Below, piece by piece: positions 3,917 through 35,208 of a stretch of 64,000 nt of DNA (position 1 is the stretch's first letter; each line of letters begins with the position of its first letter). Source of the DNA: an uncultured Gammaproteobacteria bacterium (GTDB lineage Bacteria; Patescibacteriota; Microgenomatia; Levybacterales; GWA1-39-11); the NCBI GenBank assembly GCA_964651815.1, contig CAZYWG010000006.1:23259-87258 (forward strand), in the 5' to 3' direction. The position numbers were made by a program, and so were the translations under genes. Below the pieces are notes generated by a model. It did no database searches, was not told the DNA's origin, and worked only from the letters and a program-made list of their open reading frames with translations.

Positions 3917-4017
3917 ATGAGCTTTATTCTACAAAAATTGTTTATGCTTTGTCTTGGTGTATTTTGCAAACTCGGAAGCACTTGACAAACTATTTCAAAC
4001 GTGCTGTAATTAAAAAT

Positions 4018-4474: not shown

Positions 4475-4798
4475 ATGAATGATTTTATTCCAACCTCTGA
4501 TTGGTCAAGCTGTTTGAGCAATGGGGACGTTGCCACTCTATCTTGTATTCCTATAGTTCTTCAAAATATTATTAATTTTCTTGTTCTTTTTGCAGGTATT
4601 GCGTGTGTTTTTATAATAATTTTTGCAGGTTTTAAATTCGTAACGTCAGAAGGAGACCCTGAAAAAGTTGCACTTGCAAGAAAAACCGCGATGTATGGAA
4701 TTGGAGGATTTTTATTGGTACTTGCGTCTTTTGTTCTTGTAACAATGATTTCTAAGTTTACGGGAGTCACCCAAATCGCACCAAAAAACATCCCTTAA
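4475..4798 (+). CDS. TrbC/VirB2-like pilin family protein
   Basis: Two TM helices around SEGDPEKVALARKTAMYGIGGFLLV. No classical cleavable signal peptide. A -10-like taaaat sits about 9 nt upstream of the ATG. Confidence 0.5.
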   Translation: MNDFIPTSDWSSCLSNGDVATLSCIPIVLQNIINFLVLFAGIACVFIIIFAGFKFVTSEGDPEKVALARKTAMYGIGGFLLVLASFVLVTMISKFTGVTQIAPKNIP

Positions 4799-10353: not shown

Positions 10354-10511
10354 ATTTAGTTTTCACACACTACGCATAAATAACCTCTAATCTGACATAT
10401 TTTGAGACTCTTGCAATGAAAATTTTCACGTTATAAGCTGAAATATATAGAGAAGCACAGTTCTATAGAGTTAATCTTAGAGATTATATGCTCTAAATTC
10501 TAAATTCTTTT

Positions 10512-11738
10512 ATGGAAAATCATCCTATACCACAAGACGTTACAGGCTTTAAATTTAAGCTGATTGGTAGCATGACTGTCAAACAGTTTTTATATCTATT
10601 AGGGTTTGGTATTTTGAGTATGATCTTTCTTATTTTCCACATGAATTTATTTATAAAAGTCCCTATCATGACCGTACTTGGGTGCATTGGAATATTTCTT
10701 GCATTTATTCCAATTGAAGGGCGTCCAGCGGACATTATGATAATGAATTTTGCAAAAGCAATTCCTTCTGAAAACAGGTACATTTTTAAAAAACGCGGCG
10801 TCAATTTGGCGAACTATGAAGCTTTCAAAATAATTGTCAAAAAGCCAGTTCCAGCGTCAGCAGCACCTGGGACGCAACCGTCTACACCAAAAAGTGTTTC
10901 TGATGATAAACGGGCAATTTTGATTTCGCGTCTTCGCAACTCTTCTTTCAGGCCTGATGATTCGGAAATTAAACAACTTAACAACATTAAAGCTATTTTT
11001 GATACAGATAGTAGTGCTACCCCACAAACGCAAATTTTTGTAAGTGAGCAAAAAAATAAACCAATGGTAGCAATACACGCCGACGAACCAAAAGTTGAAA
11101 TAACCAATGCTGTCTCCGCAGCGGCGCCAATTATACTTTCCTCTCCCGTGCCACAGGTAGCTGTGCATGAAATTAAGCCGCCCGAAGAAAAAAAAGCTGA
11201 TATGCCGGCAGAAAATCCGTCACTCCAAGCGGCAAAACCCGCTGCAAGCGAACAACCAGCGCAGCAAGAAGCGCCAAGACAAGAAATTCCACAGCCTCAA
11301 ATTAAACTTTCTGACAATGAAGAAAAAACACACTCTACCCCTCCCCCCGTGGCTATTGGCCAAGTATCTGCGCCTAATCTTGCCGGAGGATTCCCCACCC
11401 TTCCCGATGTTGGAAATGTAGTTCTTGGAATGGTTCGTGACGCTCGCGGCCGTACACTACCAAACATTTTGGTTGAGGTGGTGGACGACAACAATATTCC
11501 AGTGCGCGCTTTTAAAACAAACGCTTTAGGACAATTTGCTTCTGCTACCCCACTACCTGATGGCGTTTACAAAATACATTTTGAAGACCCGCAGAAAAAT
11601 CAGGAATTTGAAATTGTTGACATCAACCTTAGTGGCGAAATTTTTCAACCCATAGAAGCAGTTTCGGTTGACGCCCGAGAAAAATTAAGGCGCGAGCTTT
11701 TTGGCACTCAACCCGCAGCGCCAAGCTCAGTAGTATAA
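10512..11738 (+). CDS. PrgI/VirB3-like two-TM membrane protein with a long Pro-rich linker and a C-terminal prealbumin/carboxypeptidase-regulatory-like beta-sandwich domain
   Basis: N-terminus FKFKLIGSMTVKQFLYLLGFGILSMIFLIF...VPIMTVLGCIGIFLAFIPIEG resembles the small VirB3/PrgI component that precedes VirB4 genes. C-terminus GNVVLGMVRDARGRTLPNILVEVVDDNNIPVRAFKTNALGQFASATPLPDGVYKIHFE resembles CarboxypepD_reg-like folds. Confidence 0.45.
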   Translation: MENHPIPQDVTGFKFKLIGSMTVKQFLYLLGFGILSMIFLIFHMNLFIKVPIMTVLGCIGIFLAFIPIEGRPADIMIMNFAKAIPSENRYIFKKRGVNLANYEAFKIIVKKPVPASAAPGTQPSTPKSVSDDKRAILISRLRNSSFRPDDSEIKQLNNIKAIFDTDSSATPQTQIFVSEQKNKPMVAIHADEPKVEITNAVSAAAPIILSSPVPQVAVHEIKPPEEKKADMPAENPSLQAAKPAASEQPAQQEAPRQEIPQPQIKLSDNEEKTHSTPPPVAIGQVSAPNLAGGFPTLPDVGNVVLGMVRDARGRTLPNILVEVVDDNNIPVRAFKTNALGQFASATPLPDGVYKIHFEDPQKNQEFEIVDINLSGEIFQPIEAVSVDAREKLRRELFGTQPAAPSSVV

Positions 11739-11746
11739 AATAAATT

Positions 11747-12388
11747 ATGGCAAAAAAAGTTCATTCAACAACTCAAGACTTTACAGAAATAGTTGACATA
11801 TCAGACGACGTTGTTTTTTTTAGGGGAGGGAGCGCATGTATGATAGCCGAGGCGTCTTCAGTTAATTTTTTCCTTCTTTCAACTGATGAACAAAACGCAA
11901 GAATCTACGGATACATGGCTCTCCTAAATTCTTTGTCGTCATATCTCCAGATATTAATTGTTTCACGTCGTGTTGACCTTGGAAATTACTTAAAAATCAT
12001 TGACGAAAAAATTTCAAATGTTAAAAACCCTAAGATTTCAGAACAACTTGTTCTCTACCGCGATTTTATAAAAGATCTAATTAAGGGCGAAGGATTGCTT
12101 GATAAAAAAATCTATATTGTGGTCCCTTTTTCCCAACTTGAACTCGGTCCGTCATCTATGCCACAGCAAACAACGCAACAAGCAAGTAAACCCCTCTCTC
12201 TAAATGAGAGGATTAAATCCGGATTAATATCTAAAAGAAATAATGTCATAACTCAGGTTGAACGCATGGGGCTTACCGCAAAGCCACTTGGGACAAACGA
12301 ACTAATCAAGCTTTTTTACGAATTGTTTAACCAGGAATTTGTGACTCTGGACTTCAATTCAAGTGATATTAAGAATGTGATTATATAA
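11747..12388 (+). CDS. VirB4 N-terminal-like module encoded as a separate ORF (213 aa)
   Basis: DISDDVVFFRGGSACMIAEASSVNFFLLSTDEQNARIYGYMALLNSLSSYLQILIVSRRVDLGNYL resembles the first conserved region of TraC/VirB4-family N-termini. Same reading frame as the downstream ATPase ORF, separated from it by TAA/TAA/TAG stops. Confidence 0.4.
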   Translation: MAKKVHSTTQDFTEIVDISDDVVFFRGGSACMIAEASSVNFFLLSTDEQNARIYGYMALLNSLSSYLQILIVSRRVDLGNYLKIIDEKISNVKNPKISEQLVLYRDFIKDLIKGEGLLDKKIYIVVPFSQLELGPSSMPQQTTQQASKPLSLNERIKSGLISKRNNVITQVERMGLTAKPLGTNELIKLFYELFNQEFVTLDFNSSDIKNVII

Positions 12389-12403
12389 ACACGAAGCACT
12401 AGA

Positions 12404-12480
12404 TTCGAAACCCGAAACAAGTTTTAAAAATTAAAAAATTAGAATTTGTTTCGAATTTCGATATTCGAATTTCGAATTTT
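12404..12480. repeat. Imperfect inverted repeat plus tandem tcgaattt units between the two VirB4 ORFs
   Basis: ttcgaaacccgaaacaa (12404-12420) pairs with ttgtttcgaatttcgat (12446-12462) at 14 of 17 positions, around a 25-nt A/T loop. Followed by tcgaattt at 12451, 12465 and 12473. Confidence 0.5.
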
Positions 12481-12481
12481 T

Positions 12482-14782
12482 ATGTTGGGCTTTGGGAAAA
12501 AAACAAAACAAATTCAAAATGAAGCACCTCAACAGGTATTGAGTGCCGCGGGCGAACCTACTGTGGCGCCACAAGTCCAACCAACAATTGTTGTAAAGGC
12601 CGGGACAAAAGGCAAAAAAGCAGCTGGACAAAGCTCGCATCCGCAAAACGTGCAAAGTAAAGGGTATGCTGCTCTTTCTCAAGGGGCTGTTTCTGTAGTT
12701 GACATTATTTCCCCGTCGTCAGTTGAAGTTGATTTTAAAAATATTCGCGTTGGAAATAAATTTTTCAGGACTTTTTTTGTTGTTGATTATCCACGGCAAG
12801 TATCTCCCAACTGGCTTTCAATACTCATCGACTACAAAGAGACTATGAACATTTCAATGTTCTCATACCCCGTTGAGAGCAAAGACGTATTAACAAATTT
12901 AAGAAGAAAAATTTCTGAGATGGAAGCAACGCTTCAATCAGACGCTGAGCAAGGACTTGAACCGGACCCTAAGACTAGCGCCGGGCTGGAAGATGCAATC
13001 GCTTTGCGAGAAGAACTGGCACGTGGGCTTGAGCGATTTTTCCAATTCGGTTTATATATCACTTTGGCCGCTGAAACTGTTGAAGAACTTGACTCAAAAA
13101 CCAAAGAGCTAACTTCTCTTCTTGCGTCAAACCTTTTACTTATTAAACCCGCAACTCTCCAAATGGAAGACGGATTCAAAACTACGTTGCCAGGCGGCGT
13201 TGACAAACTTTTTATAACTCGCAACATGGATACAACTTCTCTTGCTTCAACTTTTCCTTTCACGTCTTATGAAATATCACACCCTAATGGAATCCTGTAT
13301 GGAGTCAACACAATAAATAATTCACTTGCGATTGTGGACCGTTTTTCTTTTGAAAATGCAAATGAGGTAGTCTTTGGAAAGTCAGGTGCCGGAAAATCTT
13401 TCCTGGTAAAACTTGAAATACTTCGCCAAATGATGTTTGACGCGGAGATTTTGATTATCGACCCAGAAGATGAATATAGAGCTCTTTGCCACGCGCTTGA
13501 CGGCGAATACATTAATTTTTCAAAGGACTCTGACATTAAAATTAACCCATTTGCGCTAATTTCTGAAGACATGACAGACGCGCAACTTGGAATAAAAATC
13601 TTATCACTTCACGGGCTTCTCAAAACCATGCTTGGGGAGATGACGCCAACTCAAGAAGCAATTCTCGATAGGTCTCTTGTATTATGTTATAAGCAAAAAG
13701 GGATAACTCCGGACCCCGCAACTTACAGACAAGAACCACCAATTCTTGAAGATCTTTACAAAACTCTTCTTAACATGGAAGAACCCGAAGCAAAAGATCT
13801 TTCATTCAGGCTCGAAAAATATGTGAAAGGTGGTTTCTCAGGTCTTTTTAATCAACAAACAAATTATGATGTTAAAAACCAACTAACTGTTTTTTCAATA
13901 AAACAACTTGAAGACGCGCTCCGTCCAATTGCTATGCATGTAATTTTGGATTTTATCTGGAACCGCGTCAGGACAAAGCTTAAAAAAAGAATACTGGTAG
14001 TTGATGAGGCGTGGTATCTAATGCAACACCCTGATTCTGCAAGTTTTTTGCAAGGAATTGCCAAACGGGCAAGAAAATATTTCCTTGGAGTAACTACTCT
14101 TACTCAAGATATTGAAGACTTTCTCAATAACGATTATGGAAAATCCATTTTATCTAATTCCTCAGTTCAAATTCTTTTAAAACAGAATTCTTCAGAAGTT
14201 GAAACCCTGGCAAAAGCGCTATTTTTATCGGAAGGAGAAAAACAATTTCTAGTGACGGCACAAGTTGGAGAAGGGCTTTTGTTTGCCGGGCAAAATCACA
14301 TAACCGCTCAGTTTGTGGCATCAAATTCAGAATATGAACTAATTACTTCAAAGCCACAAGATATATTAAGAAATGAACAGGACGCGGAAAATATTCAGGC
14401 GGCACAATTGGCTTCCGCGCAAGCTAATCCGCCTCAACCCACAGAACAAACACAAGCGCCGCCACCTCCACCAGAACAACCAATGCAACCTCAACAGCCT
14501 ACGGCAATACCAGTGGTACCTACCCAAAGCGTGCCGACACAAGATCCTGAAAACATCACAGTTGTTCCACAGCAAATCCAGACACCAGTACAACCTGCTG
14601 TAACACAGCAACCAATCACACAAATACCTACAGTGAGTGTACCCCAGCCAGGTACCATCCCGGCAGCACCAATTGCTTCTTTCAATCAAGCTCTCCCTAC
14701 AGCGCCCCCTGTAGCGCCACAACCCCCGATTGTTCCTACGGAAAACGTTCAGCCCCCTACAAATCCCACTGGGAGCGCATAA
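12482..14782 (+). CDS. virB4: VirB4/TrbE/CagE-family type IV secretion ATPase (ATG at 12482 preferred; ORF-track TTG at 12446)
   Basis: N-terminal region IISPSSVEVDFKNIRVGNKFFRTFFVVDYPRQVSPNWLSILIDY..MNISMFSYP. Walker A FGKSGAGKSF (nt 13375-13398). Walker B ILVVDEAWYLMQ. About 140-aa Pro/Gln-rich C-terminal extension. Confidence 0.8.
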   Translation: MLGFGKKTKQIQNEAPQQVLSAAGEPTVAPQVQPTIVVKAGTKGKKAAGQSSHPQNVQSKGYAALSQGAVSVVDIISPSSVEVDFKNIRVGNKFFRTFFVVDYPRQVSPNWLSILIDYKETMNISMFSYPVESKDVLTNLRRKISEMEATLQSDAEQGLEPDPKTSAGLEDAIALREELARGLERFFQFGLYITLAAETVEELDSKTKELTSLLASNLLLIKPATLQMEDGFKTTLPGGVDKLFITRNMDTTSLASTFPFTSYEISHPNGILYGVNTINNSLAIVDRFSFENANEVVFGKSGAGKSFLVKLEILRQMMFDAEILIIDPEDEYRALCHALDGEYINFSKDSDIKINPFALISEDMTDAQLGIKILSLHGLLKTMLGEMTPTQEAILDRSLVLCYKQKGITPDPATYRQEPPILEDLYKTLLNMEEPEAKDLSFRLEKYVKGGFSGLFNQQTNYDVKNQLTVFSIKQLEDALRPIAMHVILDFIWNRVRTKLKKRILVVDEAWYLMQHPDSASFLQGIAKRARKYFLGVTTLTQDIEDFLNNDYGKSILSNSSVQILLKQNSSEVETLAKALFLSEGEKQFLVTAQVGEGLLFAGQNHITAQFVASNSEYELITSKPQDILRNEQDAENIQAAQLASAQANPPQPTEQTQAPPPPPEQPMQPQQPTAIPVVPTQSVPTQDPENITVVPQQIQTPVQPAVTQQPITQIPTVSVPQPGTIPAAPIASFNQALPTAPPVAPQPPIVPTENVQPPTNPTGSA

Positions 14783-14789
14783 ATAAAAT

Positions 14790-17312
14790 ATGGACAACAC
14801 TGCTCAAGAGGGTAATTCAAAAAAATCCTCAGAATCAACTAAGGGCGTAATTATTTCAGGACTTGTATATGGACCGTCTAATGCGGGATCAAATGAAAAC
14901 GTTGCGCTCGGCGGAATAACAATAAGAATACAAGGTGCTTCGCGCGCGACAGATTCCCAAGACGTAACTTCTGGCGAGACAGGCGAATTTTCCTCAAGAC
15001 TACTTTCCCCGGGAAAATATAAAGTTACGCCTATTGATTCAAAAGCAATATATTTCCGTCCCCCACTGACAATTCCAGTAAACAATGATACCCCCCTCGA
15101 AATATACATGACGCCTGCTGGAACACCTAACCGCAGACGAGGCAACCATCACTCTTTTATGCCAATTATTAAAAACAACATTTACGGATTTCTTGTTGAG
15201 AGGCAAAAAAAACCAATCGCAAATATCGACGTGAGTGTTAAAAGCGTAACGCTCGATCCGGCAAAAAGTAATAAGGGCCTAATTGAAAAACTCGCAAGTT
15301 TTGTTTCAAGAAAGAATGCTACAGAAAACGAAGAAGGTAAAAATAAAGAGCCCGAACCAATTTCTATAATACTTAAAACAAACGCGCTAGGATCATTTGC
15401 TGTGAGGCAACGTTTGCCGAATGGGGCTTACATAGTTAAGTGTATAGATCCTTCCAAAAAATATACTTTTAGATCCAGATTTATGGTACTTAAAGGGTAC
15501 TACCTTCCACCTCTTTGGTTTACGGGTTATACAACATCAGACCTTGATGAATTAAAAAAGAAACACCAGGAAAGAAAAGATAAAGCACCTGAAGAGGAGA
15601 AAGACAAGGAGGCAGAAGAATCGACAACATCAAAAAAAGGTGGTACAGAAAGTGAAGATGCCAAAAATAAGGAGGGGCTAGAAGAAGGCGATGGAAAAAA
15701 AGCAGCTGATGAAGCTGCAAGAATAATCCATGAAAATCAGGCACCTTCTAAGCCACCCAAAACCGGAGGGAGTTTGAAGCCTGATGAAAGCCCAACTGGC
15801 GCTACTCCCGAAACAAAACGGGAAACCATAAGTCGAAGTGCTACTGGAACAGCGACTCTTGAGCGACCCCAAACGGAACTTCAACCAAATTTGAGGGATT
15901 ATCCTCAACCAACTTCCTTTCCTGCCATTGAAACAATAGTTCGGCCGCCACAATTTGATGAACCATCGATCCCCCAACAATCAAGCGAACAACAAAGAAC
16001 ACAGAGCGCTCAAAATGCACAAAGCGCTCAAGGAAATAGACAAAGACGATCTTCTGTTAGATCGCCGAGAATTCCAAACCCTGCAAAAAATGCAGCAAGC
16101 CAAGCGGCTCGAGGTGGAGAGAAAGAAGTTTTAAATGCTATAAATACTGCTACCGCGCCTGTTCAATCTGTCTTAAAAAAATATTTAATAGGGGCAGCAA
16201 TTATCATAATTCTTCTTATCATAATCATTCAATTTTTCGGCCCAGAGTCTCCCGCCTCCCCTTTCAGCAGTGGTGAGACGAGCGCAAATCCGGGCAATCC
16301 GGGCAATCCGACAAATCCAAACCCAGGCAACCCAGGGGTGAATACAGGCGGAGGGCTTGATTATGCAATCCTTATAAATGACCCGACCATTTTACCTGAC
16401 AATATAAAACAAACTATTGCATCAAATTGGCCAAACGCCCTGCTTCAAAATTTAGATAATATAGTATCCACTGCAAAGTCTCACAACTGGAACCCATCCT
16501 TCCTTTTGTCCCTGTGGATCGAAGAATCTGGAGGGCAAGCTGGCACGAGCAATGCGGATGGCAACCCAAATGGATACACAGATGCTCTTGGATGTGACCC
16601 TCAGCACCCCACAAGCAACATAAATTCATCTCTTACTTGTTTTTTTAATCAGTATGGATCTTATACAAAAAGTTTTGCCGACTTTATGTGTAATTACAGC
16701 GAAAGTAAAGATGCCCCTTGTACTTTTTCTACCAATCCGAATTTTCCTGGATCAATTAAATCCGTTTATGCAACGCTTGTTCCAAATGGTCCAGGGGCGG
16801 AAATAAATATTACTCCAACAACAACCCCCGGCGGCGGATCAGTTACTGCAACCTGCCCCATACGGGGGGGTATAATAACTTGTGGAAGCAAGTTCAATAC
16901 TGTTAATAATTGTGGACATTGCAACCCAAACACAGACTATGCATCCGATATGGATCAATGTACTTATAACGGAATAAATTACGCGGAGGACGTTGGGGCT
17001 TCCGCAGGAACAAACGTAATACTGCCGAGTCTTAATGGCGAGTCTATAATCTGGAACTTTTACAACGAGCAGCAGTCGGGTATTGGATCAACCATTATGT
17101 ATAAAGGGAATGACTCACATGATATTACTTATGTAATTGAATTTCATCACGTTGCAGGGGGAAGCAGTGTGAAACGCGGTCTTTCAGGAGATATTGGAGC
17201 AAAAACATGCACTGGGGACTCCCGCTGTAATCATGTTCATATTGAATTTTACAAACTGCCTGCAACAGGAGTACAAGATTATGTAGATGCGTCTAAAACT
17301 TTTTGCCAATGA
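14790..17312 (+). CDS. Membrane-anchored peptidoglycan hydrolase: two prealbumin-like N-terminal domains, a charged linker, one TM, an SLT-like lytic transglycosylase region and a C-terminal M23 (LytM) peptidase domain
   Basis: TM helix KKYLIGAAIIIILLIIIIQFF. SLT-like LLSLWIEESGGQAG...YTDALGCDPQ. M23 signature YVIEFHHVAGGSSVKRGLSGDIGAKTCTGDSRCNHVHIEF (HxH...E). NPGNPGNP tandem linker at about 16260-16330. Follows virB4 by 8 nt. Confidence 0.65.
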   Translation: MDNTAQEGNSKKSSESTKGVIISGLVYGPSNAGSNENVALGGITIRIQGASRATDSQDVTSGETGEFSSRLLSPGKYKVTPIDSKAIYFRPPLTIPVNNDTPLEIYMTPAGTPNRRRGNHHSFMPIIKNNIYGFLVERQKKPIANIDVSVKSVTLDPAKSNKGLIEKLASFVSRKNATENEEGKNKEPEPISIILKTNALGSFAVRQRLPNGAYIVKCIDPSKKYTFRSRFMVLKGYYLPPLWFTGYTTSDLDELKKKHQERKDKAPEEEKDKEAEESTTSKKGGTESEDAKNKEGLEEGDGKKAADEAARIIHENQAPSKPPKTGGSLKPDESPTGATPETKRETISRSATGTATLERPQTELQPNLRDYPQPTSFPAIETIVRPPQFDEPSIPQQSSEQQRTQSAQNAQSAQGNRQRRSSVRSPRIPNPAKNAASQAARGGEKEVLNAINTATAPVQSVLKKYLIGAAIIIILLIIIIQFFGPESPASPFSSGETSANPGNPGNPTNPNPGNPGVNTGGGLDYAILINDPTILPDNIKQTIASNWPNALLQNLDNIVSTAKSHNWNPSFLLSLWIEESGGQAGTSNADGNPNGYTDALGCDPQHPTSNINSSLTCFFNQYGSYTKSFADFMCNYSESKDAPCTFSTNPNFPGSIKSVYATLVPNGPGAEINITPTTTPGGGSVTATCPIRGGIITCGSKFNTVNNCGHCNPNTDYASDMDQCTYNGINYAEDVGASAGTNVILPSLNGESIIWNFYNEQQSGIGSTIMYKGNDSHDITYVIEFHHVAGGSSVKRGLSGDIGAKTCTGDSRCNHVHIEFYKLPATGVQDYVDASKTFCQ

Positions 17313-17828: not shown

Positions 17829-18929
17829 TTATTCTTGCACTCTTACTGGCATTATTATGTGGACGTAGTCTGGGTCGTCCGTGGTCTTAAAAAGTGCAGG
17901 CTCAACTCCGCTTGACAACTCCATCTCAACATTTTTACTTGAGAGAGTTTTTAAAACATCGTTTAAAAATTTAACATTAAACGCAATTTCATTTTCCTCA
18001 CCCTCAATTTCTGCTTCCAACGTTGCCTCCCCTTCTCCAAGGCTTGCGGCACTAGATAAGATCTTTATTTCATGTTCAAGAACCATAATTTTAATAATAT
18101 TAGCGGCTTCTCTGGCAAAGACGGAAGATAGCCTTATTTTTTGTAAAAACTCTTCCCTATCAACGGTCGCGCGAGTTTTATTTGTTTTTGGGATTACCCT
18201 TTCATAATTTGGAAAATCCCCGTTTATTAACCTCCCTATCAAGATTGTGTCCTCAGTTTCAAATATAACTTGATTTGATTTTTTATAAATGTACATTTTG
18301 ATTATTTCATCCTTTAAAGAAAGCGCTTCGGCAATAATTTTAGAAGGTAAAATAAGAGTATCGCCTTCTTCAAGAATTTTTTTGTTTTTTATCTTTTTTA
18401 AAGATAGTCTAAAACCGTCAGTTGCAACAAAATCTATACTCTCTTCTTTTTGTGAGATTAATATTCCTGTTAATTCCGGCCTTGCCTCATCAAGCGATAC
18501 TGCAAAAATTATTTTTGCAAATATTTGTTTTAATTCATCCGTTTTAAAAGCATATATCTCTTCTCCTTTTTCTTCAAAAAGCGTAGGAAATTCCTCTTTT
18601 GATATTGTTTGAAAAACTACTTTATTTCCTCGTCCTAAAAGCGTTAATTTTTCTTTTTCTAAAGATATGCTAACTTTGTCTTTTGGAAATGACGACAAAG
18701 CTTCTAAGAATTGTTTCCCTGGTACTGTTGTTGCGCCTGTCTCTTCTACTTTTGCCGGTATTTTTATTCTTATTCCTATTTCAAGGTTAGTTGAAGAAAT
18801 AAAAAGCCCTGAGTCTTGTGCTTCTATTAAAAGGTTAGCAAGTACTGGGATTTGGGAGTGGATAGGTAATATCTTAGAAATGATTGGTAAAAATCGCTCA
18901 ACATTTTCTATAAGAAACTCTGCTTTCAT
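17829..18929 (-). CDS. dnaN: DNA polymerase III beta subunit (sliding clamp)
   Basis: 366 aa with a three-domain beta-clamp-like sequence, immediately downstream of dnaA. Confidence 0.85.
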   Translation of the reverse strand: MKAEFLIENVERFLPIISKILPIHSQIPVLANLLIEAQDSGLFISSTNLEIGIRIKIPAKVEETGATTVPGKQFLEALSSFPKDKVSISLEKEKLTLLGRGNKVVFQTISKEEFPTLFEEKGEEIYAFKTDELKQIFAKIIFAVSLDEARPELTGILISQKEESIDFVATDGFRLSLKKIKNKKILEEGDTLILPSKIIAEALSLKDEIIKMYIYKKSNQVIFETEDTILIGRLINGDFPNYERVIPKTNKTRATVDREEFLQKIRLSSVFAREAANIIKIMVLEHEIKILSSAASLGEGEATLEAEIEGEENEIAFNVKFLNDVLKTLSSKNVEMELSSGVEPALFKTTDDPDYVHIIMPVRVQE

Positions 18930-19061
18930 ATATTATTTGTAATAGTAGTAGCAGTAGTATATGTGGAGAAGTGGAATAAAGCAAGAACGCGTGCGTGAGA
19001 AAATGTGGAAAACCGGGTGATAACTTTGTGTATAGCTTGTTGATAAGTAATATTCGTCATT
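18930..19061. promoter_or_regulatory. dnaA-dnaN intergenic region with two 8/9 DnaA-box-like motifs (candidate oriC segment)
   Basis: tgtggagaa at 18962-18970 and tgtggaaaa at 19014-19022, against the consensus TGTGGATAA. An agtagtagcagtagta A/T-rich trinucleotide run lies at 18943-18958. Confidence 0.4.
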
Positions 19062-20396
19062 TTACCTGGCAAATTCTTCATTTATCTTCCTTTTTATAAA
19101 CGAGATTTCCTCACGGGTTTTGTCCGATGAATCCACATTTTTCTTTATTTTTTCCACACCATGCATAACGGTTGAATGATCACGTCCACCAAGTAGATTC
19201 CCTATTTCAACAAAAGTTAACCCCGCCTCCTCTTTTAATAAAAACATACAGATATGTCTTGGGCCAACAAGGTATGAATCTCGCCTCTCCCCTTTAAGCT
19301 GGGTTGTTTTAATATTGTAGAATGTGCAAATTGCAGAAATTATTGTGTCGGGCCTAAGCATTACATGTGTTTGCTTATTTTTTTCAAGGAGCGGTAGAAC
19401 AAGCTCAATATCAATTGTTTCACCTTGATGGTTTGCAGATGCAAGTTTTAATAAAAATCCTTCAAGAGCCCGCGCGTCTTCAATTTTTTCAGCAACTGCT
19501 TTTGCCGACTCCAACGACATTTCCATTCCGTACTTTCTGCTTTTAATAACAAGAATCGCGCACCTAAGTTCAAAGTCTGGCGGCTCAATATCAACTGACA
19601 ACCCTCCTTCAAATCTTGAGGCAAGACGTGCCTCTATTTTTTTTATTTCCGACGGTGGTCTGTCTGAAGAAAATACAATTTGGCTTCCGCGGTCAACGAG
19701 CGTGTTGAATGTATGGAAGAGCTCTTCCTGCACTTTTTCTTTTCCTGCAAGAAATTGTATGTCATCAAGCAGTAAGAGATTAACGTTCCTGAATTTTTTC
19801 CTTAATTCACCGGTTGCTTTCTCCATGATTGCCTCAACTACCTCATTTGTAAATTCTTCAGTAGTCATATAGAGAATTTTAAAGTTTTCACTTTCATCAA
19901 AAGCCTTATTTGCAATTGCGTTCATAAGGTGGGTTTTTCCAACCCCAACCGTACCATAAAGAAAAAGCGGGTTATATTTGCTTCCGGGGTCTGAGGCAAC
20001 GGTTAGCGCTGCAGTGTAGGCAAGTTGATTACTTGCTGACACTGCAAGCGACTCAAAGGTGTAGTCACTCCTTATTCTGGGTGGCCTTATTTTTGAGTGA
20101 GACGCGAGGTCTTTTACAAAAAGGGGACCTGGAGTGTCTATAACCTTTTTTTGTGGCATTCCGGAAGACAGAAAAACAAGGCTAACATTCTGTCCAGTTT
20201 TCTTGTCAATGATCCTTTTAATAAGTGAATAATATCTTTCTTCTATATATTTTCCGGCCATTGGGGTGTGGGAATTAATTGTTGCTACGGAATTATTAAT
20301 TGAGGCAAGCTTTGCAGGTTTGAAAAAACCCAAGAAAACCGGCTTTGAGACCTCGAGTTCAATTTCAGCTAAAACTTGTTTCCAAAGTTCATCCAT
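19062..20396 (-). CDS. dnaA: Chromosomal replication initiator protein DnaA
   Basis: AAA+ Walker A GTVGVGKTHLMNAI. C-terminal DNA-binding helix-turn-helix ...RDHSTVMHGVEKIKK. Confidence 0.9.
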   Translation of the reverse strand: MDELWKQVLAEIELEVSKPVFLGFFKPAKLASINNSVATINSHTPMAGKYIEERYYSLIKRIIDKKTGQNVSLVFLSSGMPQKKVIDTPGPLFVKDLASHSKIRPPRIRSDYTFESLAVSASNQLAYTAALTVASDPGSKYNPLFLYGTVGVGKTHLMNAIANKAFDESENFKILYMTTEEFTNEVVEAIMEKATGELRKKFRNVNLLLLDDIQFLAGKEKVQEELFHTFNTLVDRGSQIVFSSDRPPSEIKKIEARLASRFEGGLSVDIEPPDFELRCAILVIKSRKYGMEMSLESAKAVAEKIEDARALEGFLLKLASANHQGETIDIELVLPLLEKNKQTHVMLRPDTIISAICTFYNIKTTQLKGERRDSYLVGPRHICMFLLKEEAGLTFVEIGNLLGGRDHSTVMHGVEKIKKNVDSSDKTREEISFIKRKINEEFAR

Positions 20397-20443
20397 AAAG
20401 AGGCATAAAATGAGCAGAAAAAATTAGTACCAAAGTATACGAA

Positions 20444-20500
20444 TGTGGATAACTTTTTGTCAAGAGTCGTTTTATTGCTATACTCTATCAATATGGATAA
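20444..20500. promoter_or_regulatory. DnaA boxes upstream of dnaA (candidate oriC / autoregulatory region)
   Basis: Perfect TGTGGATAA at 20444-20452 and an 8/9 box tatggataa at 20492-20500. Confidence 0.5.
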
Positions 20501-20648
20501 TTTTGAAGAAATAAGCGGAGACGTTAGGAGTGTCTTGAATATGCCTCTTCAGAATTGTCCAAAATGCGGAGAGATAATTGGTGCATTTTCAGGAGGACGC
20601 GACGCCGTCTGCCAAAACTGCGGCTATAAAGACCCTTGCTGCGAATGA
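20493..20648 (+). CDS. Small zinc-ribbon protein (about 51 aa; the ORF track alternative starts at 20445)
   Basis: CPKCGEIIGAFSGGRDAVCQNCG, a CxxC...CxxC motif. Both candidate ATGs overlap the DnaA boxes, so it is uncertain whether this is a real gene. Confidence 0.3.
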   Translation: MDNFEEISGDVRSVLNMPLQNCPKCGEIIGAFSGGRDAVCQNCGYKDPCCE

Positions 20649-20674
20649 TTTAGTCTTAGACTATAATATGATTT

Positions 20675-35076: not shown

Positions 35077-35208
35077 AAATTTTAATCACCACCTTTCAAA
35101 ATAAATTTCAAGATCTAAATTGCAAATCCCAAACCAATTTTTAATATTTAAGTATTAAATCTTTAAATATTTACTTGGTGTTTGATATTTGGTTTTTGTT
35201 GCTTAAAT

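Follow-up and report, generated by a model that had tools for sequence, protein, structure and literature searches.

The locus and its gene order

The window (the whole 64 kb stretch of DNA analysed here) carries on its forward strand a run of three genes that encode, in order, a PrgI/VirB3-like membrane protein, a short protein (ORF1) and a VirB4-like ATPase (ORF2), the coordinates of which are collected in Table 1. The first product matches the Pfam PrgI family over residues 5-82 (E 3.4e-6, 27.9 bits at a cut-off of 27) and bears a CarboxypepD_reg-like domain at its C-terminus, and ORF1 is a free-standing protein of about 200 residues with a start and a stop codon of its own. [quoted passage not shown] For comparison we gathered 37 loci from genomes and 32 from metagenomes, together with several contigs, and across these collected loci the order prgI-like, trsD-like, virB4 is constant.

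Table 1. The prgI-trsD-virB4 run and the features of its trsD-virB4 junction, in coordinates of the window.
Feature	Position	Strand	Remarks
PrgI/VirB3-like membrane protein gene	10512..11738	+	first in the prgI-trsD-virB4 run
ORF1, TrsD-type protein, 213 aa	11747..12388	+	free-standing homologue of the VirB4 N-terminal ~200 residues
trsD stop codon TAA	12386..12388	+	genuine; family-conserved position after ...DIKNVI[IL] (alignment, junction listings)
Lineage-specific insertion, 90 nt (3 x 30)	12392..12481	.	between ancestral "TAA aca" and the virB4 ATG
Predicted imperfect hairpin	12392..12474	+	RNA fold and inverted repeats
Tandem heptamer array TTCGAAT/TTCGATA/TTCGAAT/TTCGAAT	12450..12477	+	3' arm; sequence reading, direct repeat
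ORF2, VirB4-like ATPase without the first N-terminal module	12482..14782	+	

ORF1 and ORF2 lie in one reading frame (positions 11747, 12446 and 12482 are all congruent modulo 3) and are separated by 93 nt of non-coding DNA at 12389-12481, the in-frame stops between them being TAA at 12386, TAA at 12425 and TAG at 12440. These coordinates, the shared frame, the three stops, a 17-nt inverted repeat and three tcgaattt units are all as an earlier note on this DNA had reported them. The frame of ORF2 is open from a TTG at 12446 to its end at 14782, with an ATG at 12482, and we place the start of the ATPase at this ATG and not at the TTG because relatives share a conserved M[LF]G.GKK N-terminus: in the collected loci its first residues are without exception M[LF]G.GKK or MFGKKK. 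The gene call of an independent Logan assembly also starts the ATPase at 12482.

ORF1 and ORF2 together cover one VirB4

The product of ORF1 aligns with positions 132-278 of the 894 in the NCBIfam VirB4_plasma model (E 8.5e-6), and runs end to end along the NCBIfam TrsD/TraD model NF041427 (10-200 of 201), but with just 22 bits (E 1.1e-4); the curated cut-off of NF041427 is 200 bits, so ORF1 does not pass this plasmid-based model. We regard ORF1 as a remote relative of plasmid TrsD, its membership being drawn from remote homology and gene context. The Pfam family PF26593 (TraC-like) is recorded for most homologues of ORF1 and not for the window protein itself (P0001), a scan of ORF1 and four homologues against a local copy of Pfam returned nothing useful, and a sequence search of the PDB with the ORF1 family profile gave chance-level matches alone (E above 0.3). 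A full-length relative is more informative: by BLASTP, residues 2-196 of ORF1 are 36% identical (E 2e-46) to residues 3-200 of P0147, a fused and complete VirB4 of 787 residues that comes from a Patescibacteria MAG, is found in several assemblies and fits positions 3-735 of the CD1110-family VirB4 model. An AlphaFold2 model of ORF1, built on an alignment of 47 sequences, has a mean pLDDT of 82, and the 14 best Foldseek matches of this model in the PDB are all TrwK/VirB4 chains of the R388 T4SS (E 2.5e-4 to 3e-3, probability 1.0). ORF1 had been proposed to be a VirB4 N-terminal module; the model matches, the alignment with P0147 and the structural search all agree, and we take ORF1 to be such a module, homologous in sequence and in predicted fold to the first ~200 residues of full-length VirB4.

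ORF2 consists of a low-complexity linker (residues 1-75), the remaining VirB4 N-terminal domain with the ATPase (~76-640) and a Pro/Gln-rich tail (~640-766). It matches the NCBIfam CD1110-family VirB4 model with 408.7 bits (cut-off 325) over positions 176-751 of 752, its alignments beginning at position 293 of 894 in VirB4_plasma, 238 in TIGR00929 and 272 in TraC. Pfam matches are to P-loop_TraG (E 2.1e-33), AAA_10 and DUF87, the PDB entry 4ag5 is matched at E 4.7e-45, and the translation contains the Walker A motif GKSGAGKS. Residues 76-639 are 56% identical to residues 213-778 of P0147. Since ORF1 takes up residues 3-200 of this protein and ORF2 residues 213-778, the two ORFs tile one VirB4 without overlap, as the earlier note had proposed to check, and the matches to the NCBIfam models tile over ORF1 and ORF2 as well. 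Where P0147 has a link of ~12 residues, the window has the 75-residue low-complexity stretch at the N-terminus of ORF2.

A palindromic insertion between stop and start

The junction of the window reads TAA aca, then 90 nt, then ATG, whereas that of the closest relatives is compact: TAAacaATG in L040 (TrsD 87% identical) and TAAaATG in L043 (86%). With only 1-3 nt between stop and start in these relatives, the window spacer is a recent, lineage-specific insertion of 90 nt, acquired after divergence from relatives that keep TAA-aca-ATG. Other pairs differ in the same manner, namely L004 and L046 (TrsD 95% identical; 80 against 3 nt) and L056 and L057 (88%; 141 against 21 nt). The suggestion in the earlier note of a footprint of a small inserted element thus holds for the spacer, for which these compact junctions speak, and fails for the division of the gene. 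No target-site duplication was found at the borders of the indel in either the window/L040 or the L004/L046 pair, and no second copy of the window element in the 64 kb or in 76 loci (inverted-repeat scan, blastn-short and fuzzy heptamer patterns).

Most of the insertion is an imperfect hairpin, whose predicted stems pair 12392-12396 with 12470-12474, 12405-12410 with 12456-12461 and 12413-12427 with 12439-12453 around a loop at 12428-12438; an example stretch of the element reads TTCGAATTTCGATATTCGAATTTCGAA. The 3' arm is the tandem heptamer array of Table 1, and the 5' arm (12403-12421) is its inverse, ATTCGAA ACCCGAA ACAAG; a search for the heptamer pattern gave 4 matches against 0.92 expected. 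The inverted repeat noted earlier joins 17-nt arms at 12404-12420 and 12446-12462 that are complementary at 14/17 positions, the repeat finder extends it to a longer, imperfect one of 25 nt (12387-12411 / 12448-12472), and the three tcgaattt units start at 12451, 12465 and 12472. TTCGAA occurs 7 times in the 64 kb, where base composition predicts about 21, and 4/7 of these sites are inside the spacer. Folded as RNA, the stop-to-start segment reaches -23.5 kcal/mol (z = -4.9), as good a value being found in 0/200 dinucleotide shuffles, and a 111-nt segment (12380-12490) has z = -3.95, its outermost, weak stem pairing the UAA stop region with UUUAUGU around the start codon. None of the other intergenic regions of the window (~34) falls below a z of about -3.6; in this intergenic scan the spacer was scored as 12389-12445 only, with z -0.86.

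The single look-alike of the element, in L074, sits within a coding region, and a visual resemblance to the element of L056 is unsupported by BLAST at E <= 1e-3. An intrinsic terminator was rejected: the stem is AU-rich and long and is followed by just AAUUUUU, and there is no short G+C-rich stem with a T-run. The scan for promoters and terminators placed no site in 12389-12481, and an Rfam search of the spacer gave chance-level miRNA and pseudoknot matches only (E above 0.3). The hexamer TAGAAT at 12440-12445 resembles -10 boxes before other genes here, such hexamers being expected by chance in AT-rich DNA. A second array in the window, TCTAAAT TCTAAAT, abuts the ATG of prgI.

Comparable elements at T4SS junctions of other Levybacteria

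Long spacers are scattered patchily over a similarity tree of TrsD. Their sequences differ completely between lineages, while their architecture is common: an A-rich array of units of ~7-11 nt, a loop, and an inverse T-rich array that ends a few bases before the ATG. The RNA folds of some are strong (z of -4.9 in the window, -6.2 in L011, -4.6 in L023, -3.6 in L009 and -2.5 in L006), and about half of the long spacers have no significant fold. The 66-nt element of the L011 trsD-virB4 junction is also present before trsD (L011 and L009) and before prgI (L009 and L054), every copy ending directly at an ATG and the one in L054 holding a GC-rich palindrome nested within it; L023 has related arrays at all three junctions, before prgI, trsD and virB4. 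The spacers of L053 and L068 are 92% identical (97/105 aligned positions), against 60% for the neighbouring trsD coding DNA and 56% for the encoded proteins, a disparity suggestive of horizontal spread or of strong constraint. When two families of elements (5 sequences each) were folded to a consensus, 0 and 3 compensatory pairs resulted and no usable covariation, a search of the literature for palindromic intergenic repeats in CPR returned nothing relevant, and TIGR arrays were set aside as a description of the spacer element, there being no adjacent Tas-like gene and the unit length not fitting.

These elements bring up the question of whether the spacer, instead of being a passive insertion, serves the T4SS operon as a cis-regulatory module, be it as internal promoter or leader, as attenuator or terminator, or as protein-binding array; it would then be one of a class of palindromic arrays of short repeats located immediately ahead of T4SS start codons in Levybacteria. 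We consider this possible, on balance doubtful. The repeated presence of related elements before several T4SS genes of single genomes (L023; the 66-nt element of L011, L009 and L054), always abutting the ATG, is what such a module would lead one to expect, as are the greater identity of the L053/L068 spacers than of their flanks, the array at the window's prgI and the -10-like hexamer. The closest relatives, however, manage without the insert, the sequences of the elements are wholly different between lineages, covariation support is absent, about half of the long spacers lack a significant fold, a -10-like hexamer is no surprise in AT-rich DNA, and the scan for promoters and terminators was negative. 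More tentatively still, the insert may be a member of an undescribed class of Levybacteria cis-elements, inverted-array hairpins at the stop/start junctions of T4SS genes (prgI, trsD and virB4), which would spread between divergent genomes, possibly by recombination via the conserved flanking codons, and would control T4SS subunit expression in largely Shine-Dalgarno-less, leaderless-prone genomes.

Conservation of the split and the meaning of the shared frame

Stand-alone relatives of ORF1 are abundant. A word-index search with ORF1 found 314 homologues, and the 120 listed, all from Patescibacteria/Levybacteria assemblies, are 179-235 aa long and 58-87% identical; when aligned they share 58 invariant columns, and the stop comes directly after a conserved C-terminus, ...DIKNVI[IL]. 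A profile search with these homologues collected 2260 relatives among 1.8 billion representative proteins, and in the best 150 of the 2260 the domain lies at residues 1-205, with one alone fused to an ATPase. Split genes are the norm when orthologous loci are compared for fused and divided forms, and of the possibilities raised in the earlier note it is the genuinely split ATPase that the relatives bear out, in keeping with the published TrsD (PMC12102498). The trsD/virB4 split is old, conserved and under purifying selection, and trsD and virB4 are two genes, each with initiation and termination of its own, that jointly make up one VirB4.

Among 49 distinct junctions the relative frame of the two genes is 0 in 22, +1 in 12 and +2 in 15, the excess of the same frame (22/49) having a binomial p = 0.06 against 1/3 with loci that are not independent. 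Gaps of 1-9 nt are found in 24 of these junctions, of 19-39 nt in 7 and of 71-141 nt in 18, and arrangements in which the trsD stop and the virB4 start overlap also occur among relatives. The prior for a shared frame of ORF1 and ORF2 is 1/3, not beyond chance, and that a non-coding, AT-rich stretch of 93 nt should contain two additional stops is nothing unusual. The frame in the window is that of an ancestral TAA-NNN-ATG, which an insertion of 3 x 30 nt kept by chance; "in-frame" and "three stop codons" carry no biological weight.

This distribution bears directly on programmed readthrough, hopping or bypassing, by which a fused TrsD-VirB4 would be made with the hairpin as recoding signal, and which the earlier note had raised as regulated readthrough or recoding. 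Such a mechanism could draw on the shared frame in the window, on a stable hairpin that begins 4 nt past the stop and on the outer stem of the 111-nt fold, which pairs the region of the stop codon with that of the start codon. It would, however, need readthrough at each of three in-frame stops, the closest relatives L040 and L043 have no spacer, among long-spacer relatives the frames 0, +1 and +2 occur 9:4:5, and the start codon and N-terminus of the ATPase are conserved; with genes that overlap or lie 1-141 nt apart in all three relative frames, the junctions rule out readthrough or frameshifting as an obligatory step, and we hold recoding to be very improbable, bypassing of ~90 nt keeping a slight formal chance on sequence alone. 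An assembly or sequencing artefact in the spacer deserves about as little credence: palindromic low-complexity DNA is prone to mis-assembly, but over 12340-12520 the window agrees letter for letter with an independent Logan assembly of run SRR9179562, and analogous inserts are found at the same junction in many unrelated assemblies. Weakest of all is the view that a nonsense mutation recently broke up a once-fused virB4 (pseudogenisation) and left ORF1 and ORF2 as decaying fragments, which we dismiss since, for all that the ORFs share a frame, tile a fused homologue and have fused VirB4 counterparts in Patescibacteria, the same stop position and a stand-alone protein of ~210 aa recur in hundreds of relatives, that stop and the ATPase's own M[LF]G.GKK start are conserved in dozens of genomes, the relative frames take all three values with stop/start overlaps among them, the sequence is strongly conserved, with its 58 invariant columns, and TrsD is present throughout the phylum in the published survey (PMC12102498).

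A model for the two-gene VirB4 and its junction

We are strongly confident in the explanation taken as a whole, that the window holds an ancient two-gene VirB4, trsD plus virB4, into which a lineage-specific palindromic insert has come that stands outside any coding or recoding mechanism. Here trsD supplies the N-terminal domain of VirB4 with its first ~200 residues and virB4 encodes the remainder with the ATPase, the two proteins being separate products for each of which start and stop are conserved. In the solved R388 T4SS complex the VirB4 N-domain contacts VirB3, and by analogy with this contact TrsD may bind the truncated VirB4 and the PrgI/VirB3-like protein and so rebuild the membrane-proximal N-domain.

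In relatives with compact junctions virB4 is perhaps translated by stop-start coupling, a suggestion we make with reserve. In the window 93 nt separate stop and start, yet the stem of the insert would bring the two together. The insert may act at the RNA or the DNA level, for instance as a structural, stability or attenuation element; alternatively it may furnish a new 5' end, as an internal promoter or leader in place of direct stop-start translational coupling, or it may simply be tolerated as a REP/MITE-like, selfish or slippage-derived palindrome. If functional, the junction inserts could tune the ratios of T4SS subunits and would do so variably between close relatives, exactly at the stop/start junctions, in genomes mostly without Shine-Dalgarno sites whose T4SS is thought essential for the epibiotic lifestyle. 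The split itself matters little, the arrangement being published; for annotation, ORF1 should be entered as TrsD-like, an N-terminal module of VirB4, without a pseudogene flag.

Comparison with known systems

Small intergenic palindromic repeats are familiar in bacteria as REP/BIME, Correia (CREE), BOX/RUP and MITE-like elements. With these the window element has in common that it is a short (70-140 nt), hairpin-forming intergenic insertion whose presence varies between close relatives, and the comparable elements of related genomes share with REP and MITE-like repeats several copies per genome and a high identity across divergent hosts. The resemblance stops at the details: a terminal inverted repeat with target-site duplication was looked for and not recognised, the arms are built as arrays of units of 7-8 nt (about 10-11 nt in the L011 type), first A-rich and later T-rich, every copy seen is placed exactly in the gap from a stop codon to the following start codon in T4SS genes, and the window's own element is single within 64 kb.

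The proteins themselves have known counterparts. Full-length VirB4/TraC/TrwK proteins (the CD1110 family; R388 TrwK in 7o41 and 8rtb) are covered over their whole length by ORF1 and ORF2 taken together, whereas the window encodes the protein as two polypeptides. Another counterpart is TrsD/TraD of staphylococcal pGO1/pSK41 (MPF_FATA; NF041427), which like ORF1 is a separate homologue of the VirB4 N-terminus of ~200 aa; both the plasmid TrsD and that of Patescibacteria adjoin a virB4 without that part, within a monoderm-type T4SS with a PrgI/VirB3-like gene. Compared with the plasmids, the window differs in that its match is remote (22 bits) and in the palindromic insertion between trsD and virB4, which it shares with some relatives.

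The Patescibacteria TrsD belongs with these, and a survey of Patescibacteria T4SSs (Microb Genom 2025) describes it as remotely homologous to the N-terminus of VirB4 and as the T4SS component of greatest abundance there; the survey counted 2,272 TrsD homologues, 1,664 of them VirB4-associated, and found TrsD outside Patescibacteria limited to the pGO1-type subclass of MPF_FATA (PMC12102498). The word TrsD is absent from the main text of Guglielmini 2014 (PMC4027160), and for the homology of TrsD we cite the survey only. The T4SS clusters of the survey are oriC-proximal, with essentiality reported in Ca. Southlakia epibionticum (PMC12102498), and those that carry TrsD resemble the window in being chromosomal as well as oriC-proximal. 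The division of VirB4 into TrsD and a truncated ATPase is thus an already described, standard feature of the Patescibacteria T4SS of which the window is one more example, and the palindromic short-repeat-array inserts at T4SS gene junctions are its sole mildly new aspect.

The Fission Point of the Split VirB4

The free-standing VirB4 N-terminal module (ORF1) ends in a conserved C-terminal tail, EFVTLDFNSSDIKNVII, which has low pLDDT in the predicted model. It is weakly similar to SVEVDFKNIRVGN, the first conserved strand in the downstream virB4-like ATPase (ORF2). Both segments share a BLAST target in P0147, a fused full-length VirB4 from a Patescibacteria MAG. The ORF1 tail may be what is left of an overlapping duplication where the two genes split apart; alternatively, it may serve as a docking motif. 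Among TrsD-like proteins of other lineages, many are 300-715 aa long (representative proteins P0130-P0264); in these long forms a VirB4-N-like domain at residues 1-205 is followed by long tails in which no ATPase model was matched, and the stand-alone module is thus often extended rather than minimal.

Palindromic Elements at Gene Junctions

A palindromic element of ~66 nt with GATT/GATC periodicity is repeated in three related genomes (L011, L009 and L054) and, across these, directly precedes the prgI, trsD and virB4 start codons; the L054 copy contains a nested GC-rich palindrome, CCTGCCTTGCCGGCAGGCAGG. In two other related T4SS loci, L053 and L068, the spacer elements share 92% identity, against 60% for the trsD coding DNA beside them, a disparity which suggests that the junction element has spread horizontally. 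The L068 spacer has an additional nested palindrome, tccgccagctggcgg.

Base composition predicts about 21 occurrences of the BstBI-type palindrome TTCGAA in the whole 64 kb; only 7 are present, four of them within the 90-nt insert separating ORF1 from ORF2. One possible explanation for this scarcity is that the host avoids CpG or restriction sites and that the insert is foreign in composition. Two other repeats of the window are listed in the table.

Coordinates of features in the window and in related sequences
Feature	Location	Remark
ORF1 tail	12335-12385	residues 197-213
ORF2 first conserved strand	12713-12754	residues 78-91
Shared BLAST target	P0147 residues 215-229	787 aa
~66-nt element	L011:3934-3999, 4640-4710	
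~66-nt element	L009:2851-2916, 3939-3999	
~66-nt element	L054:1344-1420	
Spacer element	L053:991-1096	
Spacer element	L068:3140-3255	
Repeat array	10470-10511	TCTAAAT TCTAAAT TCTTTT, directly adjoins prgI ATG
Second, weaker hairpin	35077-35208	7-nt units (ACCAAAT.. / TTGGTTT..), between two minus-strand genes
PrgI/VirB3-like protein	10512-11738	
Protein after virB4	14790-17312	840 aa
dnaN, dnaA and intergenic region	17829-20674	
Candidate oriC	20397-20674	278 nt
Gene start regions (examples)	30040(+), 40218(-), 41624(+), 48064(-), 55063(-), 56212(-), 60011(-), 63623(-)	

Translation Starts

Shine-Dalgarno-like motifs precede only 6 of the 44 window genes, and in many a TATAAT-like box, often TGnTATAAT, ends 6-8 nt 5' of the ATG; together these start-region patterns suggest that leaderless mRNAs are widespread in this genome.

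Genomic Setting

Many MAG records with clearly Levybacteria-type T4SS loci (L007-L010, L015-L030 and others) carry the title "uncultured Gammaproteobacteria bacterium"; the submission batch was probably mislabelled.

Within the cluster, the PrgI/VirB3-like protein combines a long low-complexity linker with a C-terminal CarboxypepD_reg-like domain, and the protein encoded after virB4 has a domain of this kind at its N-terminus. Directly downstream of the cluster lie dnaN and dnaA, followed by an intergenic region that may be oriC. This placement beside dnaN/dnaA agrees with the oriC-proximal location reported for the T4SS of Patescibacteria (PMC12102498).
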